A program made the position numbers and the translations under genes. From Candidatus Levyibacteriota bacterium (GTDB taxonomy: Bacteria > Patescibacteriota > Microgenomatia > Levybacterales > UBA12049): a stretch of DNA of 64,000 nucleotides. Below, one piece after another: positions 26,798-57,763 of the stretch. The stretch covers positions 496,236 through 560,235 of the forward strand of contig CP066685.1 of assembly GCA_016432345.1 (NCBI GenBank), written 5' to 3'. The notes beneath the pieces were generated by a model. The model was not told the DNA's origin, ran no database searches, and worked only from the letters and a program-made list of their open reading frames with translations. Positions within the stretch are counted from its first letter, which is position 1. Each line of letters opens with the position of its first letter.

Positions 26798-27907
26798 ATG
26801 AAAATTCTTATTACAGGAGGAGGTCACTTTTCGCCAGCAATGGCAGTAATTGAGTCGTTGCCAAAAGGCATAAGCGTATTGATGGTGGGTCGAAAGTACT
26901 CATTTGAAGGCGACAACGCGCTATCTATTGAGTATATAGTATGTCAAGAAAGAGGTATTCCATTTATTGCATTATCAACCGGAAGATTACAACGTAAGTT
27001 TACAAAATATACAATTTCCTCTCTTTTGAAAATTCCATTTGGATTTTTTAAAGCACAAAAAATAATGCGTGATTTTAAGCCAGATGTGGTGTTGTCGTTT
27101 GGCGGATATATTTCGCTGCCAGTTGTTTTGGCAGCATATGCGTTTAGGACTCCTATTGTGGTGCATGAACAAACGCTTGAAGCAGGAATGGCAAATAAAA
27201 TTGCATCGTATTTTACGAAAAAAGTTTGTATTTCATGGGAATCATCAAGAAAGTTTTTTCCGAAAAAGAAAGTTGTATTAACGGGAAACCCGATTAGAAG
27301 ATTTAAGATTAAAGATTTAAGATTAAAGATTAAAGATGACGAGAAATTGCCGATTATTTATGTAACTGGGGGGAGTTCGGGGTCGCATGCGATTAACCTG
27401 TTGGTTGAAGGATGTATTGAAGGGCTTTTGGAAAATTTCATTGTATTTCATCAAACAGGCGATGCAAAAGAATTTAATGATTTTGAAAGACTTAATACAT
27501 TTAAAAAAACTTTAAAAAGCTCGTTGCAGAAGCGGTATATTTTAGAAAAATTTGTGCCAATGCAGAATGTTGGAGAGGTAATTAATCGAGCGGATCTAAT
27601 TATATCAAGATCGGGAATCAACACAATAACAGAGCTGTTATTTTTTGGTAAACCTGCAATACTTATTCCTATAACATTTTCTCAAAGAAACGAGCAGTTG
27701 AAAAATGCTACTTTTTTGCAAGAACACGGCTTGGCAAAAGTACTGGAACAAGAGACGACAACAAGCGAAACGCTTTATCAGGAAATTTTAGAGATGCTAA
27801 AGCAGAAAAACGAATATATGAAATCCGCAAAAGAGGCAAAAAAGCTTGTTATTCCAGATGCTCGAGAAAGAATACTTGCTGTACTGCAGCAAGTTGTGAA
27901 AAAATAG
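26798..27907 (+). CDS. murG: UDP-GlcNAc:lipid I GlcNAc transferase MurG
   Basis: It is a GT28 GT-B enzyme with ITGGGHFSPA, VHEQTLEAGMANK, LTGNPIR and VTGGSSGSHAIN. It contains the period-7 cassette at 27301-27335. Confidence 0.9.
   Translation: MKILITGGGHFSPAMAVIESLPKGISVLMVGRKYSFEGDNALSIEYIVCQERGIPFIALSTGRLQRKFTKYTISSLLKIPFGFFKAQKIMRDFKPDVVLSFGGYISLPVVLAAYAFRTPIVVHEQTLEAGMANKIASYFTKKVCISWESSRKFFPKKKVVLTGNPIRRFKIKDLRLKIKDDEKLPIIYVTGGSSGSHAINLLVEGCIEGLLENFIVFHQTGDAKEFNDFERLNTFKKTLKSSLQKRYILEKFVPMQNVGEVINRADLIISRSGINTITELLFFGKPAILIPITFSQRNEQLKNATFLQEHGLAKVLEQETTTSETLYQEILEMLKQKNEYMKSAKEAKKLVIPDARERILAVLQQVVKK
27301..27335 (+). repeat. Period-7 array (ATTTAAG ATTAAAG ATTTAAG ATTAAAG ATTAAAG), 35 nt, in frame in murG
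   Basis: There are five units in two variants. It encodes FKIKDLRLKIKD in the interdomain linker just before IIYVTGGSSG. Confidence 0.93.
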
Positions 27908-33767: not shown

Positions 33768-36581
33768 ATGTTAAAACCAGTCACCTCGCAAGTTGATTTT
33801 CCCAAACTCGAGGAAGAAATTATACAGTTTTGGAAAATCAATAAAATTTTTGAAAAATCAGTTGCCAAAGAAGCGCCAAAAGGTAATTGGACATTTTTAG
33901 ATGGGCCGCCTTTTATTACAGGGCTTCCTCATTATGGTAGTTTGCTTTCTAGTATTCCCAAAGATTTATTTCCCCGTTTTAAAACCATGCAGGGGTATAG
34001 GGTTAGACGTGTTTGGGGTTGGGATTGTCATGGTCTTCCGGCGGAAAATAAAGTGGAAAACAAATTGAGTATTACCCGCAAAAAAGATATTGAAGAAAAA
34101 ATAGGAGTTAAAAAATTTATTGACGAATGTAAATTGTATGTTAAGGATGTGTCTTCGGAATGGGAATGGTATGTAGACCACGTTGGCCGCTGGGTTGATT
34201 TTAAAAATGCCTACAAAACCATGGACTTACCATATATGGAGACAGTGATGTGGGTATTTAAACAAATGTACGACAAGGGTTATATTTACAAAGGTCTTCG
34301 GGTGTCGCTTTATTGCCCACATTGCTCAACGCCAATATCAAACTTTGAGGTTGCGATGGATGTTGATAATTATAAAGAGATAACTGATGCGGCAACAACA
34401 TATAAATTTGAGTTGCAAGATGAACTAAAGACGTTTATTCTTGCTTGGTCAACAACTCCCTGGAATAAAATTGTTACTCCTGCGTTGGCAGTTAATCCAA
34501 AATTGACTTATGTAAAAGTTAAGCAAGGTAACGAAAATTATATTTTAGCTAAAACAACTCTAAAAATACTTACTGGAGATTACAAAATTGTGGAAGAATT
34601 TAAAGGGGCAAAACTTGTGGGCATGCAGTATGTTCCGCATTACGATTATTATCCAATCGAAAAAGGCAAACAAGCATTTGTGATTATTCCTGGTGATTTT
34701 GTTACAGCAGAAGAAGGCACAGGAGTTGTAACAATTGCTGCTTATGGGGAAGAAGATTTAAAAGCCATGCAGGAAAATAATATCCATATTGAAATGCATC
34801 TGGACGAAGAAGGAACAATCAAACAAGATGTAGCACTTTTTGGCGGGATGTACTATCTTAAGGCGAATAAAGCCGTCAACGAAGATTTGGCAAAGAGGGG
34901 TTTAATTTATAAAGACGAGCAGTTGCCTCACAATGTTCCATTATGTTGGCGGTGTCATACTCGTTTGTATTATGGGCCGCAGAATGCCTGGTACGTGAAT
35001 GTGCAGAAATTAAAAAAAGAAATGAAGGAAACAAATGAGACTACTAATTGGTTTCCCAAACATTTTAAATATGGCCGATTTTTAAAAAGCTTAGAAGCAG
35101 CGCCAGATTGGTGTATTTCAAGAAGTCGTTATTGGGGATCGCCTGTGCCGGTATGGGAGTGTACATGCGGACAGCGGATAGTACCCGGTTCAATTAGAGA
35201 ATTAGAAGAATTCTCCGGTAAAAAAATTACAGATTTGCACAAACCCGAAATTGACGAAGTAATTATTAAATGTTTATCATGCGGCAAGAATGCAAAACGG
35301 GTCACCGAAGTTTTGGATAGCTGGATCGAAGCAGGTTCTGCGTCGTTTGCCGAACGCCATTTTCCTTTTAATAAAAGCGTAAAACTTACCGATTTTTTCC
35401 CACCCGATTTTATTGTGGAATATACAGGACAAATCCGCGCCTGGTTTTATGTGTTGCATGTGATTACAAATGCTTTGTATAAATCAAACGCCTACAAAAA
35501 TGTTGTGGTAACAGGAGTTATTTTAGGGACCGATGGCAGGAAGATGAGTAAAAATTACGGCAATTATCCAGATCCGAAAGAAATGCTGCAAAAATATGGC
35601 GGTGATGCACTGCGACTTTACTTAATGGGAAGTCCTGTGATGCATGGAGAAGATATCCTTATTTCTGAAGAACAATACAAACAACAAGTTAAAGGCACCA
35701 TACTTATTTTGTGGAATGTGTACAATTTTTTCGTATCAAATGCGATCGTTGACCAGTATCAAGTGTTAAGTATAAAGTATAAAGTATCAGAGAATATATT
35801 AGATCAATGGATCGTTTCATTGCTACAGAAGTTGATAAAAGAAATAACAGATGCTTTAGAAAAATACGATACTATTTTGGCTATAAAAGAAGCAGAAGGA
35901 TTTGTTGGTGATCTTTCGACTTGGTACATCAGGCGAAGTAGAGATAGGGTGGGAGCTGCGGTAGAAAATAGTAAAGATAAAAGGGCGTTTTATGAAACAA
36001 CATATTATGTGTTAACAACTCTTTGTAAACTTCTTGCGCCCATTATGCCATTTATTACAGAAGAGATGTATAAAAATTTAACAGGGGAGGAATCGGTTCA
36101 TTTATCGGATTGGCCGCGAACAGATCAAAGATTAAAGATCAAAGATCAAAGAATAGAAATCGAAATGGAGCAAGGTATACAACTTGCGTCAAAAGTGCAT
36201 GCTTTACGAAAACAGACAAATATCAAAGTTCGTATCCCTCTTAGAAAATTATCATACAAAGGACCAGAGGAACTTATAAAAGAAGTAAAGAAGGTTGTTT
36301 TGGATGAGGTGAATGTATACGAATTAGTTTATGCGGGCAAGAGTGATAATTATGAAGTTTCTGGTGATACAAGTCAAAAAAATCAGGATATCGAAGCAGG
36401 AAAAGCGCGGGATATTATTCGAAGTATTCAAGAAGAGCGAAAAAAACTTGGCACCAGCCTTGATGAATATGTTGATGTTGTTATCGAATCCTGGCCAAAA
36501 GAATTTGAAAATACAATCAAAAAGAAAGCGCTAGTTAAAACGCTTATTAAAGGTAATCAATTTAACGTTGTTAGAATATGA
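33768..36581 (+). CDS. ileS: Isoleucine--tRNA ligase (type 2, eukaryote/archaeal-like)
   Basis: The sequence shows GPPFITGLPHYG (HIGH variant), KMSKNYGN (KMSKS), a CP1 editing domain and WCISRSRYWG. It contains period-7 cassettes at 35755-35789 and 36123-36157. Confidence 0.95.
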   Translation: MLKPVTSQVDFPKLEEEIIQFWKINKIFEKSVAKEAPKGNWTFLDGPPFITGLPHYGSLLSSIPKDLFPRFKTMQGYRVRRVWGWDCHGLPAENKVENKLSITRKKDIEEKIGVKKFIDECKLYVKDVSSEWEWYVDHVGRWVDFKNAYKTMDLPYMETVMWVFKQMYDKGYIYKGLRVSLYCPHCSTPISNFEVAMDVDNYKEITDAATTYKFELQDELKTFILAWSTTPWNKIVTPALAVNPKLTYVKVKQGNENYILAKTTLKILTGDYKIVEEFKGAKLVGMQYVPHYDYYPIEKGKQAFVIIPGDFVTAEEGTGVVTIAAYGEEDLKAMQENNIHIEMHLDEEGTIKQDVALFGGMYYLKANKAVNEDLAKRGLIYKDEQLPHNVPLCWRCHTRLYYGPQNAWYVNVQKLKKEMKETNETTNWFPKHFKYGRFLKSLEAAPDWCISRSRYWGSPVPVWECTCGQRIVPGSIRELEEFSGKKITDLHKPEIDEVIIKCLSCGKNAKRVTEVLDSWIEAGSASFAERHFPFNKSVKLTDFFPPDFIVEYTGQIRAWFYVLHVITNALYKSNAYKNVVVTGVILGTDGRKMSKNYGNYPDPKEMLQKYGGDALRLYLMGSPVMHGEDILISEEQYKQQVKGTILILWNVYNFFVSNAIVDQYQVLSIKYKVSENILDQWIVSLLQKLIKEITDALEKYDTILAIKEAEGFVGDLSTWYIRRSRDRVGAAVENSKDKRAFYETTYYVLTTLCKLLAPIMPFITEEMYKNLTGEESVHLSDWPRTDQRLKIKDQRIEIEMEQGIQLASKVHALRKQTNIKVRIPLRKLSYKGPEELIKEVKKVVLDEVNVYELVYAGKSDNYEVSGDTSQKNQDIEAGKARDIIRSIQEERKKLGTSLDEYVDVVIESWPKEFENTIKKKALVKTLIKGNQFNVVRI
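33838..33872. repeat. 35-bp direct repeat, copy 2 (native ileS codons 24-35, WKINKIFEKSVAKE)
   Basis: It is identical to 32773-32807. It lies in the conserved N-terminal region of IleRS, upstream of the PPFITGLPHYG (HIGH-type) motif. Confidence 0.95.
35755..35789 (+). repeat. Degenerate period-7 array (AGTATCA AGTGTTA AGTATAA AGTATAA AGTATCA), 35 nt, in ileS
   Basis: It has five units of consensus AGTRTYA. It encodes QYQVLSIKYKVS. Confidence 0.8.
36123..36157 (+). repeat. Period-7 array (GATCAAA GATTAAA GATCAAA GATCAAA GAATAGA), about 35 nt, in ileS
   Basis: It has four clear units and one degenerate unit. It encodes DQRLKIKDQRI and shares AGATTAAAGAT(T/C)AAAGAT (17/18 nt, same reading frame, peptide RLKIKD) with the murG array. 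Confidence 0.88.
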
Positions 36582-38099: not shown

Positions 38100-38144
38100 A
38101 AAGAATAATTTTTAATTTTTCACTTTAACTTTTAATTTATTTTT

Positions 38145-39887: not shown

Positions 39888-39959
39888 GGACCTGTGGTTC
39901 AGTGGTAGAGCGTTCGCTTCACATGCGAAAGGCCGATGGTTCGAATCCATCCAGGTCCA
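39888..39959 (+). tRNA. tRNA-Val (anticodon CAC)
   Basis: Manual cloverleaf: acceptor GGACCTG/CAGGTCC, D arm GTTC/GAGC, anticodon stem TTCGC/GCGAA with loop TTCACAT, and T arm GATGG-TTCGAAT-CCATC. CCA is not encoded. Confidence 0.93.
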
Positions 39960-42168: not shown

Positions 42169-43206
42169 CTACTTGAAAAACTGATTTGTGTATAACTTGG
42201 TAAAATCTAATGTCGTTACTGCCGAGCCTGATGCATCTTTTATTTGGCCTGTACTTAAAATAAACTTTGGAAATTCTGTCCAGGCTTTTTCGTCTTGAAC
42301 TCCCCATGGTTTATCTGGGTCCGTGTAACGAGGACTTAGATATTTTTGGCTTTCGACAACAAATTCTTTGTCATCAAACATTCCTTTTTGCGCAGAGTCA
42401 ATAAGGATTTGCGCCGACTCTTCTGGATTTTGTATAGCAAAATTATATCCTTTGGTGGTTGCTTTGATAAACTTTCTCAAAATCTCTGGCCTTCCTTTTA
42501 TTTGTGTGGGGCCGGAAATAAGGACCGGGGTATAGTAATCGGGAATACCATATTTTATAAGGGAAAATGAAACAAGTTTTACTCCCTGTCGTTTTGCTTG
42601 CACGCCTGTCCAGGCATCAAAAATCCAAACAAAATCAATTTTTTTGGTTTCTAAGGCTTTTATGCCGTCTATATCCAGCATGACTGTTTTAAAATTTCCT
42701 TTTCCATTATTTTTTTTGATCATTTCTGAAATAACTGCATTTTCAAACGGAGCGCCAAACCCGCCATAGATTTTTCCATCAAGATCTTTTGGAGTTTTTA
42801 TGCCAGAGTTTTCTGTTGCGGCAAGAGAGGAGGTGTTATGTCGAATAATTGTGGCAATTGATACCACAGGATTGCCAGAGGCAACAGATGTAACAACGCC
42901 TTCTGTATAACTTACGCCAACATCTGCTTTATTCGTTGAAACTAATATTTCGGATGAAACGTTTCCAGAATAGGGAAGAATTTTAACTTCGATTCCTTCG
43001 TTTTTGTAGTATCCTTTTTTTTGCGCCACATAAATACCTGTGTGGTTGGTATTGGGCGTATAGTCTAGGGCAAGCGTTACTGCTGTCAGTTTGGGCGTTT
43101 CTATTGGCGGTTTTGCAGGTTTTCTATTTTGTAACAAAAATAATCCTACTAGACCAAGAAGAACAATAAATGTTGCAAAAATGTATTTTATAGGTAGTTT
43201 TATCAT
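42169..43206 (-). CDS. NMT1/THI5-like periplasmic substrate-binding protein (ThiY-like)
   Basis: It has an N-terminal anchor and LALDYTPNTNHTGIYVAQKKGYYKNEGIEV, typical of NMT1/ThiY binding proteins. The ATG at 43206 is preferred because the ATG at 43221 lies inside the riboswitch. Confidence 0.8.
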   Translation of the reverse strand: MIKLPIKYIFATFIVLLGLVGLFLLQNRKPAKPPIETPKLTAVTLALDYTPNTNHTGIYVAQKKGYYKNEGIEVKILPYSGNVSSEILVSTNKADVGVSYTEGVVTSVASGNPVVSIATIIRHNTSSLAATENSGIKTPKDLDGKIYGGFGAPFENAVISEMIKKNNGKGNFKTVMLDIDGIKALETKKIDFVWIFDAWTGVQAKRQGVKLVSFSLIKYGIPDYYTPVLISGPTQIKGRPEILRKFIKATTKGYNFAIQNPEESAQILIDSAQKGMFDDKEFVVESQKYLSPRYTDPDKPWGVQDEKAWTEFPKFILSTGQIKDASGSAVTTLDFTKLYTNQFFK

Positions 43207-43292
43207 TTCCTTCGTCGGCATTACCCGAACAGGTTCAAAGGGTCGTCGCCTTAAGCAACCTCTCAGCCCATCTATTGAGCTCCCCTATTTAT
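43207..43292 (-). promoter_or_regulatory. TPP (THI-box) riboswitch
   Basis: The minus strand reads ...AUAGGGGAGCUCAAUAGAUGGGCUGAGAGGUUGCUUAAGGCGACGACCCUUUGAACCUGUUCGGGUAAUGCCGACGAAGGAAAUG. The conserved CUGAGA, ACCCUUUGAACCUG and GGUAAUGCC..CG.AGG blocks are all present. Its 3' end contains the SD/start codon. Confidence 0.85.
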
Positions 43293-43298
43293 GTGATT

Positions 43299-51041: not shown

Positions 51042-51992
51042 ATGAAGATAAGTTTTATTTCGACTGTTTACAATGAGGAGAAGACGATTGGATGGATGCT
51101 AGAGAGTTTGGCAAAACAGACGAGGATGCCAGACGAGATGATTATTGTAGATGGAGATTCAACCGACAGTACGCTGTCGGTAATTTTCAATTTTCAATTT
51201 TCAATTTTCAATCAAAACACAAAAAATAAATTTTCAAAAATAAAAATACTTACAAAAAAAGGGAATCGGGCGGTGGGACGAAATGAGGCGATAAGAAATG
51301 CGACAGGCGATATTATTGTATGTTCGGATGCGGGATGCCAGTTGGATAAGGATTGGGTGAAGAATATTGTGAAGCCGTTTGAAAATCCAAAAGTAGATGT
51401 TGTCGCAGGGTACTATGCAGCAAAGCCACAATCGATCTTTCAAAAATGCCTGGTGCCATATGTGCTTGTTATGCCAGATAAGATTGACCCTAAAAATTTT
51501 CTTCCGGCATCCCGCACAATGGCATTTAGAAAATCTATTTGGGAAAAAGTTGGTGGGTTTCCAGAAAGATACTCGCATAACGAAGATTATGTTTTTGCAA
51601 AGAAGTTAAAGCACATTGGAGTAAATATCGTTTTTGCCAAAGATGCCATTGTTTACTGGATGCCTCGAAAGAATCTAAAGCAAGCATTCATTATGTTTTT
51701 CCGCTTTGCCTTTGGCGACGCAGAAGCTCGTATTTTTCGCCCAAAAGTTTTTTTGATTTTCGTTCGTTATTTATTTGTATTTTTTCTCATTTTTTTACTT
51801 ATTGGTTTTCAACTATACGCTATACGCTATACGCTATACGCTATGTTTTTATTGTACGTGACGTGGTCTGTTTGGAAGAACTACAAATACGTTGCAGACT
51901 GGCGCGCAATCGTAATTTTGCCTATACTACAAATAACTGCTGATATTGCAGTAATTTTGGGAACGATATGGGGTATACAACACAGGCAATAA
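51042..51992 (+). CDS. Glycosyltransferase family 2 with C-terminal TM region
   Basis: The sequence shows ISFISTVYNEE, IIVDGDSTDST, GRNEAIRNA and CSDAG, with C-terminal hydrophobic helices. It carries cassettes at 51183-51213 and 51813-51844. Confidence 0.85.
   Translation: MKISFISTVYNEEKTIGWMLESLAKQTRMPDEMIIVDGDSTDSTLSVIFNFQFSIFNQNTKNKFSKIKILTKKGNRAVGRNEAIRNATGDIIVCSDAGCQLDKDWVKNIVKPFENPKVDVVAGYYAAKPQSIFQKCLVPYVLVMPDKIDPKNFLPASRTMAFRKSIWEKVGGFPERYSHNEDYVFAKKLKHIGVNIVFAKDAIVYWMPRKNLKQAFIMFFRFAFGDAEARIFRPKVFLIFVRYLFVFFLIFLLIGFQLYAIRYTLYAMFLLYVTWSVWKNYKYVADWRAIVILPILQITADIAVILGTIWGIQHRQ
51183..51213 (+). repeat. Perfect heptanucleotide array (AATTTTC)x4.4 in a GT2 gene
   Basis: Period-7 identity holds from 51183 to 51213. 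It encodes IFNFQFSIFN just after the DGDSTDST motif. Confidence 0.95.
51813..51844 (+). repeat. Perfect heptanucleotide array (CTATACG)x4.6 in the same GT2 gene
   Basis: Period-7 identity holds from 51813 to 51844. It encodes LYAIRYTLYAM within the C-terminal hydrophobic region. Confidence 0.95.
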
Positions 51993-57690: not shown

Positions 57691-57763
57691 GCCGATGTAG
57701 CTCAGTTGGTAGAGCGGCGCTTTCGTAAAGCGTAGGTCGCAGGTTCGATCCCCGCCATCGGCT
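57691..57763 (+). tRNA. tRNA-Thr (anticodon CGT)
   Basis: Manual cloverleaf: acceptor GCCGATG/CATCGGC, D arm GCTC/GAGC, anticodon stem GCGCT/AGCGT with loop TTCGTAA, and T loop TTCGATC. There is one A-C mismatch in the T stem, and CCA is not encoded. Confidence 0.88.

Follow-up and report, generated by a model that had tools for sequence, protein, structure and literature searches.

We analysed a 64,000-nt stretch of DNA from a Candidatus Levyibacteriota bacterium (assembly GCA_016432345.1, contig CP066685.1, positions 496,236 to 560,235 of the forward strand; hereafter the window), in which the murG gene carries a heptanucleotide tract within its coding sequence. The closest genomes are those of Candidatus Levybacteria (Microgenomates, Patescibacteria, or candidate phyla radiation, CPR), and the GC content of the genome is 37%. 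The murG open reading frame (ORF) occupies positions 26798-27907 on the forward strand and encodes a protein of 369 amino acids (aa), which is 100% identical to the NCBI entry QQG40463.1 of a metagenome-assembled genome. Pfam recognised in this protein the N-terminal domain of glycosyltransferase family 28 (GT28; PF03033, aa 8-144, 84.3 bits against a cut-off of 26.2) and the C-terminal domain of the same family (PF04101, aa 186-356, 109.2 bits against a cut-off of 22), while phmmer matched it to the solved MurG structures 7D1I (E = 2.5e-33), 3S2U and 1F0K. The neighbouring genes are arranged as mraY (MraY-type Glycos_transf_4)-ftsW (FtsW/RodA)-murG-ftsQ-like-ftsA, the setting of a division and cell wall (dcw) cluster. 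Taken together, the domains, the homology and the dcw context identify the ORF as MurG, the GT28 UDP-GlcNAc:lipid I transferase. The murG gene is essential in E. coli and B. subtilis. The AlphaFold2 model of the protein, with a mean predicted local distance difference test (pLDDT) score of 89 and a predicted template-modelling (pTM) score of 0.86, is built of two halves of alternating strands and helices, both Rossmann-like.

At 46% of the ORF length, positions 27301-27335 read ATTTAAG ATTAAAG ATTTAAG ATTAAAG ATTAAAG, exactly as described in an initial annotation of this DNA, which had noticed five period-7 units here. Tandem Repeats Finder (TRF) placed the tract at 27292-27337 (forward strand) with 6.4 copies of period 7, 87% matches and a score of 69; at period 14, the same tract gave 93% matches and a score of 76. 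The first copy in the TRF alignment, GATTAGAA, bears a 1-nt indel. Three homologues with linker peptides closest to that of the window (L113, L114 and L116; comparison loci and homologues are referred to by L numbers) have a common register with it, AGATTTA. In this register, five full units cover positions 27299-27333 of the forward strand and encode R168-K179 (RFKIKDLRLKIK): u1, AGATTTA, 27299-27305; u2, AGATTAA, 27306-27312; u3, AGATTTA, 27313-27319; u4, AGATTAA, 27320-27326; and u5, AGATTAA, 27327-27333, after which the sequence continues as AGAT|GAC. The peptide around the tract reads LTGNPIR-RFKIKDLRLKIKDDEKLP-IIYVTGGSSG; the one reported earlier, FKIKDLRLKIKD, was correct, only the flanking R and DEKLP having been omitted.

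To define the periodicity, the whole window was scanned at lags of 2-24 nt in segments of 35 nt (28 comparisons) with a threshold of at least 85% identity, and the same census was made on 200 dinucleotide-preserving shuffles. The results clearly showed five lag-7 regions, at 359-404, 1409-1451, 27297-27340, 51177-51217 and 51807-51849. No other lag reached 85% in the window, except lag 14 at the murG site itself, and the 200 shuffles yielded no region of at least 85% at any lag. Perfect runs of at least three copies followed the same pattern: in the window, four have period 7 and a single further run, 15 nt long, has period 3. Furthermore, when RRFKIKDLRLKIKDDE was re-encoded with synonymous codons drawn according to the codon usage of the window (100,000 trials), 25 of 28 lag-7 matches were reached in only 0.02% of cases (P = 0.0002), thus indicating that the periodicity resides at the DNA level, beyond what the protein demands. 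The data confirm that the murG tract is a true heptanucleotide simple-sequence repeat (SSR), slightly degenerate and beyond chance. A fortuitous low-complexity pattern arising from a Lys/Ile/Asp-rich linker in an AT-rich genome could draw on the GC content of 37% and on the biased composition of the linker; however, 0/200 shuffles and the outcome of the synonymous resampling refute this explanation, and it is also opposed by the restriction to lag 7 and the recurrence of the same feature in orthologues (see below). The initial annotation had foreseen that MurG orthologues of distant lineages with a linker of the same length and no periodicity would speak for ordinary sequence periodic by chance. 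Distant MurG proteins indeed have such a linker, but the periodicity is still not a matter of chance.

In the AlphaFold2 model, the interdomain linker (codons R167-P185, positions 27296-27352, forward strand) runs between the strands 159-161 and 186-190; residues 162-185 are coil, and the block 171-180 has a pLDDT of 54. The tract codes for R168-D180 and so falls within the interdomain linker of the GT-B fold, in the coil between the two Rossmann-like domains (AlphaFold2, Pfam), where it had been placed from the outset. In the MurG alignment, the linker is preceded by the invariant residues G163, N164, P165 and R167 and followed by the conserved LP(I/L)IY(I/V)TGGS. Its length equals that of the window in an alignment of 30 homologues (52-59% identity), linkers of 75 orthologous loci typically measure 55-60 nt with or without periodicity, and P. 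aeruginosa MurG (3S2U) aligns with the window MurG with no gap across the linker. Judging from these alignments, the tract occupies the linker and adds no net length to it, which disagrees with its earlier description as a cassette or insert. The notion that five units arose from a two-unit seed by one three-unit in-frame gain was rejected as well, since the tract-bearing linkers are not longer than those without a tract.

For comparison, we assembled 80 orthologous loci, one genome per species, with a total of 1.26 Mb. In many Levybacteria, a heptamer tract of about five units stands in murG right after the GNPxR codons, in the same register and with a species-specific unit. The tract is perfect in L036 (AATTTTC, ×4.9), L024 (AAAGTTC, ×4.9) and L026 (GAAATTC, ×4.9), and nearly so in L057 (AGTTCGA/TGTTCGA), L007 (AATTCAA/AGTTCAA), L016, L008, L072, L032 and L009. 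A strong murG tract was found in 18 of 81 species; at the protein level, at least 3/7 identity at a 7-residue lag was seen in the linkers of 43 of 111 close homologues (for instance, KFQISNF/KFQISNE, KYRISNI/EYRISNK and NYELRSM/NYELSDE). In other clades, murG is intact and the linker is conserved and ordinary, as in RKEFEMGDLRTD... and RGVVLNAKPF.... The tract of L015 has about three extra units (+7 aa), and in L094, with a MurG orthologue at 44% identity, (AAATATC)×3 at the murG site is split by a GC-rich insert. As the MurG proteins of tract-bearing species are only about 55% identical (52-59%), neutral sites must be saturated. At such a distance, uniform units within each species, differing from one species to the next, imply continuous homogenisation, and this points to the concerted evolution of an old microsatellite. 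The species-specific units at orthologous tracts and the extra units of L015 are what unit gain, loss or conversion would leave behind.

The departures of the murG tract from perfect periodicity have a simple reason. A 7-nt unit passes through all three frames over three units, such that in the frame of u2 and u5 AGATTTA followed by A would give ATT TAA, and in that of u3 and u6 AGATTAA would give GAT TAA. According to the codon reading, an in-frame TAA is avoided by A at 27311, A at 27332 and T at 27318. The corresponding units are GAATTTA AAATTAA AAATTTA AAATTTA AAATTAA in L113, CGATTTA AGATTTA TGATTTA AGATTTA AGATTAC in L114 and AGATTTA AGATTTA TGATTCA AGATTTA AGATTAA in L116, and they display two ways of escaping the stop: TTTA is changed to TTAA (Lys; the window and L113), or the A of the next unit is changed to T (TAA to TAT, Tyr, giving RFKIYDL; L114 and L116). 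The sole departures from AGATTTA that the frame does not call for are u4 in the window and a single base in L116. Because the departures fall exactly where an in-frame TAA would arise, the open frame accounts for the T/A variants. Consistent with this, perfect coding tracts number 0/10 when the unit contains a stop and 16/27 when it is stop-free (Fisher P = 0.0017). The T/A alternation is thus the smallest deviation from perfect periodicity with which the frame stays open, forced by stop-codon avoidance. The initial annotation had regarded the variants as a means to suppress slippage in an essential gene, but essentiality does not enforce interruption, since the murG tracts of L024, L026 and L036 are perfect.

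A -1 programmed ribosomal frameshift site was also considered for the murG tract and rejected: the reading AGA TTT AAG ATT AAA GAT TTA AGA TTA AAG offers no zero-frame X XXY YYZ, and there is no signal of downstream structure. No RNA structure signal was detected at the tract (z = +0.43). An Rfam covariance search of the window found only two tRNAs (39888-39959 and 57691-57763) and a thiamine pyrophosphate (TPP) riboswitch (67 bits, 43190-43296, reverse strand), none of them near murG and all unrelated to the tract.

Taken together, the results allow us to propose, with fair though not full confidence, that the murG tract is a slippage-maintained heptanucleotide repeat with the base unit AGATTTA that has been screened for reading frame, linker length and lack of stop codons. 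The proposal rests on the periodicity, its DNA-level origin, the position of the tract, the lack of net insertion, the differing units of orthologous tracts and the avoidance of stops. A heptamer microsatellite would have become the coding sequence of the linker in an ancestor of much of the phylum; replication slippage in 7-nt steps, or conversion within the tract, would keep it periodic through concerted evolution; and selection on the essential gene would let through only variants that preserve the frame, a linker of about 18 residues and freedom from stops, the linker peptide itself needing no particular sequence. Here we infer both the homogenising role of slippage or conversion and the near-neutrality of the linker sequence.

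The murG tract is one of a set of heptamer tracts in the window, as had been claimed for it, and the others, all given on the forward strand, are as follows. Two lie in adjacent paralogous genes of glycosyltransferase family 4 (GT4): the perfect (CAAATAC)×5 at 365-399 and the perfect (AAATACC)×4.9 at 1413-1446, which is the same unit. They occupy aa 96-107 and 181-192, in interdomain linkers between the Pfam N- and C-domain matches, and immediately precede the first strand of the C-domain just as in MurG, so that the structural position is the same, as the initial annotation had it. The two GT4 tracts, which occupy the same place in their linkers, are direct repeats at a distance of 1,048 nt, and recombination between them would join the N-domain of one paralogue to the C-domain of the other. 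The ileS gene has two imperfect tracts, at 35755-35787 (AGTATAA, 84%) and 36122-36152 (AGATCAA, 91%, encoding DQRLKIKDQR), both with orthologous tracts at the site. An imperfect intergenic tract, TAATTTT/AACTTTT, at 38106-38138 lies upstream of an ORF that is probably L27. The gene of a family 2 glycosyltransferase (GT2) has two perfect tracts, (AATTTTC)×4.4 at 51182-51212, directly after a GC-rich hairpin at 51162-51181 (ACCGACAG-TACG-CTGTCGGT), and (CTATACG)×4.6 at 51813-51844, in the C-terminal hydrophobic region.

This set bears on the earlier idea of a 35-nt mobile or recombining cassette that murG would have in common with ileS and the GT genes. The murG and ileS tracts do contain an in-frame match of 17/18 nt (AGATTAAAGATTAAAGAT vs. 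AGATTAAAGATCAAAGAT), both encoding RLKIKD; moreover, the tracts at all loci are alike in length, and the adjacent GT4 paralogues have identical units. However, units within one cyclic mismatch of each other make up 12% of random pairs (45 tracts), which gives about 2.5 expected against 2 observed among the 21 pairs of the window, and the resemblance between murG and ileS is within chance. The match reported between the two genes is real, then, but a shared cassette does not follow from it. Given that there is no net insertion, that neither terminal repeats nor target duplications are present, that units vary among loci of one genome and that the species-specific units of orthologous tracts point to evolution in situ, a cassette is very improbable and poorly supported.

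Heptamer tracts recur in essential genes of other species. In ileS, they are found at two or three conserved sites, among them the two of the window (relative positions of about 0.70 and 0.84-0.89), with species-specific units in L001, L008, L013, L021, L035, L038, L041 and L046, those of L001, L035, L041 and L046 being perfect. A Mur ligase (Mur_ligase_M + Mur_ligase_C, 399-417 aa) has a tract at relative position 0.43 in L022:975-1006, L036:829-857 and L071:2825-2851. Throughout the 80 loci, perfect runs of at least three copies number 14 at period 7 vs. 4 at all other periods from 2 to 30 combined. TRF found 45 non-overlapping period-7 tracts in the loci and the window, 37 of them coding and 8 intergenic or at gene junctions, and the full-length ORF is kept in all 37/37 coding tracts (80 species plus the window). 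Their lengths are narrowly distributed: the median over all 58 period-7 TRF rows (overlaps included) is 33 nt with an interquartile range of 29-35, the few longer tracts measure 46-71 nt (the L015 murG tract among them), and the 18 perfect tracts span 26-36 nt, with none at 21-25 nt and none above 36 nt. A unit consensus, AARWWTC, was weak and partly an artefact of the choice of rotation, and was not used as evidence. The heptamer tracts probably extend beyond Levybacteria. Several period-7 tracts were noted in L099-L102 and L094, with MurG at 32-44% identity; examples are AAATCCC ×8.4, TTTCGAA, TGGGATT and a cluster at L102:3645-3857.

Several tracts outside coding sequences deserve mention. 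At L009:2749-2779 and L036:2905-2935, a Mur-ligase-like gene, whose tail ...RIKN and stop are encoded by the tract, is joined to a downstream ORF beginning with MQKLIVNGGKKL... by (AAGAATT)×4 and a subsequent ATG; the two junction tracts are identical at 31/31 positions, and the flanks are 72% identical. A similar (AAGAATC) tract lies just upstream of an ATG at L017:3670-3698. AACTTTT/TAATTTT intergenic tracts stand upstream of the start codons of different genes at 38106-38138 in the window, at L044:9953-9984 (before murG) and at about 4230-4255 in L026. Upstream of glmS, L016:4338-4440 differs from L018:2391-2425 by a 37-nt insertion in L016, which corresponds approximately to the neighbouring heptamer tract in reverse complement and creates a long inverted repeat that is missing in the otherwise near-identical L018.

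As 7 is not a multiple of 3, a change of ±1 unit shifts the frame, and the tract could in principle be a contingency locus, in which slippage in unit number switches murG on and off (phase variation), as happens with tetranucleotide and heptanucleotide repeats in genes of surface structures. In the window, the genes with perfect tracts encode glycosyltransferases and belong to a polysaccharide locus, the classic setting for such switches, and Logan contigs assembled at k=31 break within perfect tracts in every sample, which could reflect length heterogeneity. Contigs of this species end or start inside the tracts at 1413, 51182 and 51813: they start inside the 1413 tract in five samples, end 16 or 26 nt into the 51182 tract in six samples and start 2-3 nt into the 51813 tract in three samples. 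The break at 1413 is due to 31-mers shared with the tract at 365. The breaks at 51182 and 51813 may represent heterogeneity or an artefact of the assembly graph, and the points at which contigs end (26 or 16 nt into a tract) are not what simple ±1-unit alleles would give. The GT2 protein of the window had no exact match on record.

The data on strains and species speak against phase variation of murG. The window MurG is identical in three further samples (exact-protein look-up, three Logan contigs), and a JGI metagenome scan with the MurG protein gave no relative above 57% identity. No change in unit number was seen in ten clusters of at least 90% identity (29 sequences; nine clusters with tracts), where the differences are point changes, one of which restores a consensus unit (P0133, TTG to TTC), plus one palindrome polymorphism. 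The four sources of MurG and the strain-level clusters thus show no variation in unit number, a small sample of assembled sequences only. Moreover, the gene is essential in model bacteria, the tract is interrupted (87%) and lies mid-gene rather than near the 5′ end, and all 37 coding tracts are in frame, as opposed to the phase-variable neuO gene with its 3-53 copies and 65.6% phase-OFF genomes (PMC13001214). We therefore consider a murG switch unlikely and poorly supported. A split murG (P0137 + P0135; L118:74-1160; 162 + 158 aa) was examined as an OFF allele and discarded, as its frameshift falls at an A-run upstream of GNPIR, outside the tract; the split may have arisen by a sequencing error or mark a pseudogene.

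The palindrome polymorphism just mentioned concerns two murG sequences that are 98.5% identical, L119 and L120, and consists of a 16-nt palindrome, TCCGCCAACTGGCGGA, in place of the AATT core of unit 3, with a net gain of 12 nt. Short GC-rich palindromes of the types TCCGCCAGCTGGCGGA, TCCGCCAATTGGCGGA and CCTGCCGGCAGG, encoding PPAGG, SANWR or LPAGKAG, occur within the heptamer tracts of murG and glmS. Besides L120 vs. L119, they were found at L001:6260-6275, L023:1832-1849, L005:10504-10518, L010:10534-10554, L044:10518-10529 and L029:4883-4898 (glmS). Their recurrence suggests a very small mobile or hairpin-generated element that may target heptamer tracts. An origin of the tracts as transposon footprints (7-bp target duplications) was rejected, as the strain polymorphism is a 16-nt palindrome replacing the AATT core (+12 nt), with no 7-bp duplication.

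Several observations weigh against a slippage-maintained repeat as the explanation of the murG tract. Simple slippage does not explain the narrow range of tract lengths, and intergenic tracts, which are free of frame limits, are equally long. Only steps of ±3 units preserve the frame, and these can homogenise a tract at period 21 alone; to be perfect at period 7 in an essential gene, a tract therefore requires conversion or double slips with a net change of zero. As each slip of ±1 unit should be lethal, selection should favour interruptions, but murG, ileS and the Mur ligase retain perfect tracts. Unit-number variants were absent among the three further samples and the nine tract-bearing clusters of at least 90% identity. 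Finally, the intergenic junction tract of L009 and L036, 100% identical against 72% in the flanks, looks like a product of constraint.

These difficulties give some room, though clearly less probability, to another explanation, namely that the tracts are selected cis-acting DNA or RNA elements of about 33 nt with a 7-nt periodicity, the murG copy being embedded in a tolerant linker. Such an element might serve as an array of binding sites for a multimeric factor, as a signal for pausing or translation, or as a site of recombination or landing. It would agree with the narrow length distribution, in which the intergenic tracts are included, with the fact that murG, ileS (at two sites) and the Mur ligase have kept their tracts at identical positions despite deep divergence, with a periodicity near the maximum allowed by the ORF in four diverged species, and with the conserved (AAGAATT)×4-ATG junction. 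As a rule, repeats in the middle of a protein are suppressed (PMC3315296), and the 16-nt GC-rich palindromes insert preferentially into heptamer tracts, both of which also favour a selected element. On the other hand, the unit sequences are not conserved between species or loci, whole clades have non-periodic linkers and an intact murG, neither a partner protein or RNA nor an RNA structure signal or Rfam match was obtained, and the murG tract of the window is among the more degenerate ones. In its fullest form, which we put forward just as tentatively, Levybacteria and probably other CPR would actively maintain tracts of about 33 nt and 7-nt periodicity at fixed sites (linkers of essential genes, gene junctions) as selected nucleic-acid elements, with a mechanism that sets their length or rewrites them. 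Periodicity and length, and not sequence, would be conserved; the tracts would be preferred sites for 16-nt GC-rich palindromic nano-elements; and the murG tract would be a stop-constrained instance of an undescribed element.

Either way, the persistence of these tracts is of interest. Frameshift-prone repeats are usually purged from the middle of essential genes, and here they persist at the same codon position of murG, as well as in ileS and the Mur ligase, across a candidate phylum. If the tracts are purely mutational, as slippage maintenance would have it, they offer a natural system for the rates of 7-nt slippage and concerted evolution under the strictest selection, and they would mean that a microsatellite can supply the coding sequence of an entire protein linker. 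If they are selected, they point to an unrecognised class of elements defined by periodicity, not by sequence, in bacteria with minimal genomes. In practical terms, because k=31 assemblies break at heptamer tracts, gene calls in metagenome-assembled CPR genomes may be fragmented there.

Among known systems, the closest coding counterpart is neuO of the E. coli K1 phage CUS-3, with (5′-AAGACTC-3′)n in 3-53 copies and 65.6% of genomes phase-OFF (PMC13001214). As in murG, a heptanucleotide repeat is translated, every three units yield a 7-residue peptide repeat, and only changes in steps of three units preserve the frame (PMC13001214). However, the neuO tract lies at the 5′ end of an accessory surface-modification gene, varies in copy number and leaves the gene active only when that number is divisible by 3, whereas the murG tract has a fixed five units, always in frame, in a mid-gene domain linker of an essential gene. 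A poly-heptad tract of the neuO type was rejected as the class of the murG tract for this reason, five units being fixed across species and the position mid-gene. The contingency loci in glycosyltransferase genes of Haemophilus, Neisseria and Campylobacter likewise rely on frameshift-prone repeats, and the four perfect GT4/GT2 tracts of the window fit this description on paper. Unlike classical contingency loci, the tracts studied here have given no OFF alleles or copy-number polymorphism and are also found in murG, ileS and the Mur ligase.

The Rickettsia palindromic elements (RPEs) are dispersed copies, 100-150 bp long, of one family that lie in frame in coding genes and add length to them. 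As with RPEs, repeat-derived sequence is tolerated here as an extra or replaced surface loop in essential proteins, and the 16-nt GC palindromes in orthologous murG tracts behave similarly; the murG tract itself differs in being a local tandem repeat that adds no length. Heptanucleotide repeats as such are found in other bacteria, the STRR (short tandemly repeated repetitive) heptamers of cyanobacteria being one example. Many bacterial genomes are reported to contain an excess of heptameric repeats, and polymerase slippage was suggested as their origin (Mrazek 2007, as cited in PMC4692102); the GGGAATC repeats of Xanthomonas and the GGGGA(C/T)T repeats of Nostoc belong here as well (PMC4692102). 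A literature search found no description of heptanucleotide repeats in CPR/Patescibacteria. The tracts of Levybacteria resemble the long heptanucleotide SSRs of bacteria in their head-to-tail 7-nt units, in the excess of period 7 and in lying beside the same genes of related species, where both their sequence and their length vary. The known long SSRs are mostly intergenic (7-11% intragenic in Xanthomonas), G-rich and of one unit family per genome, whereas the tracts described here are mostly coding, essential genes included, A/T-rich, with a unit of their own at each locus and lengths near 33 nt. In other words, what sets the tract apart among heptanucleotide repeats is the conserved placement in essential genes, the concerted evolution and the near-constant length.

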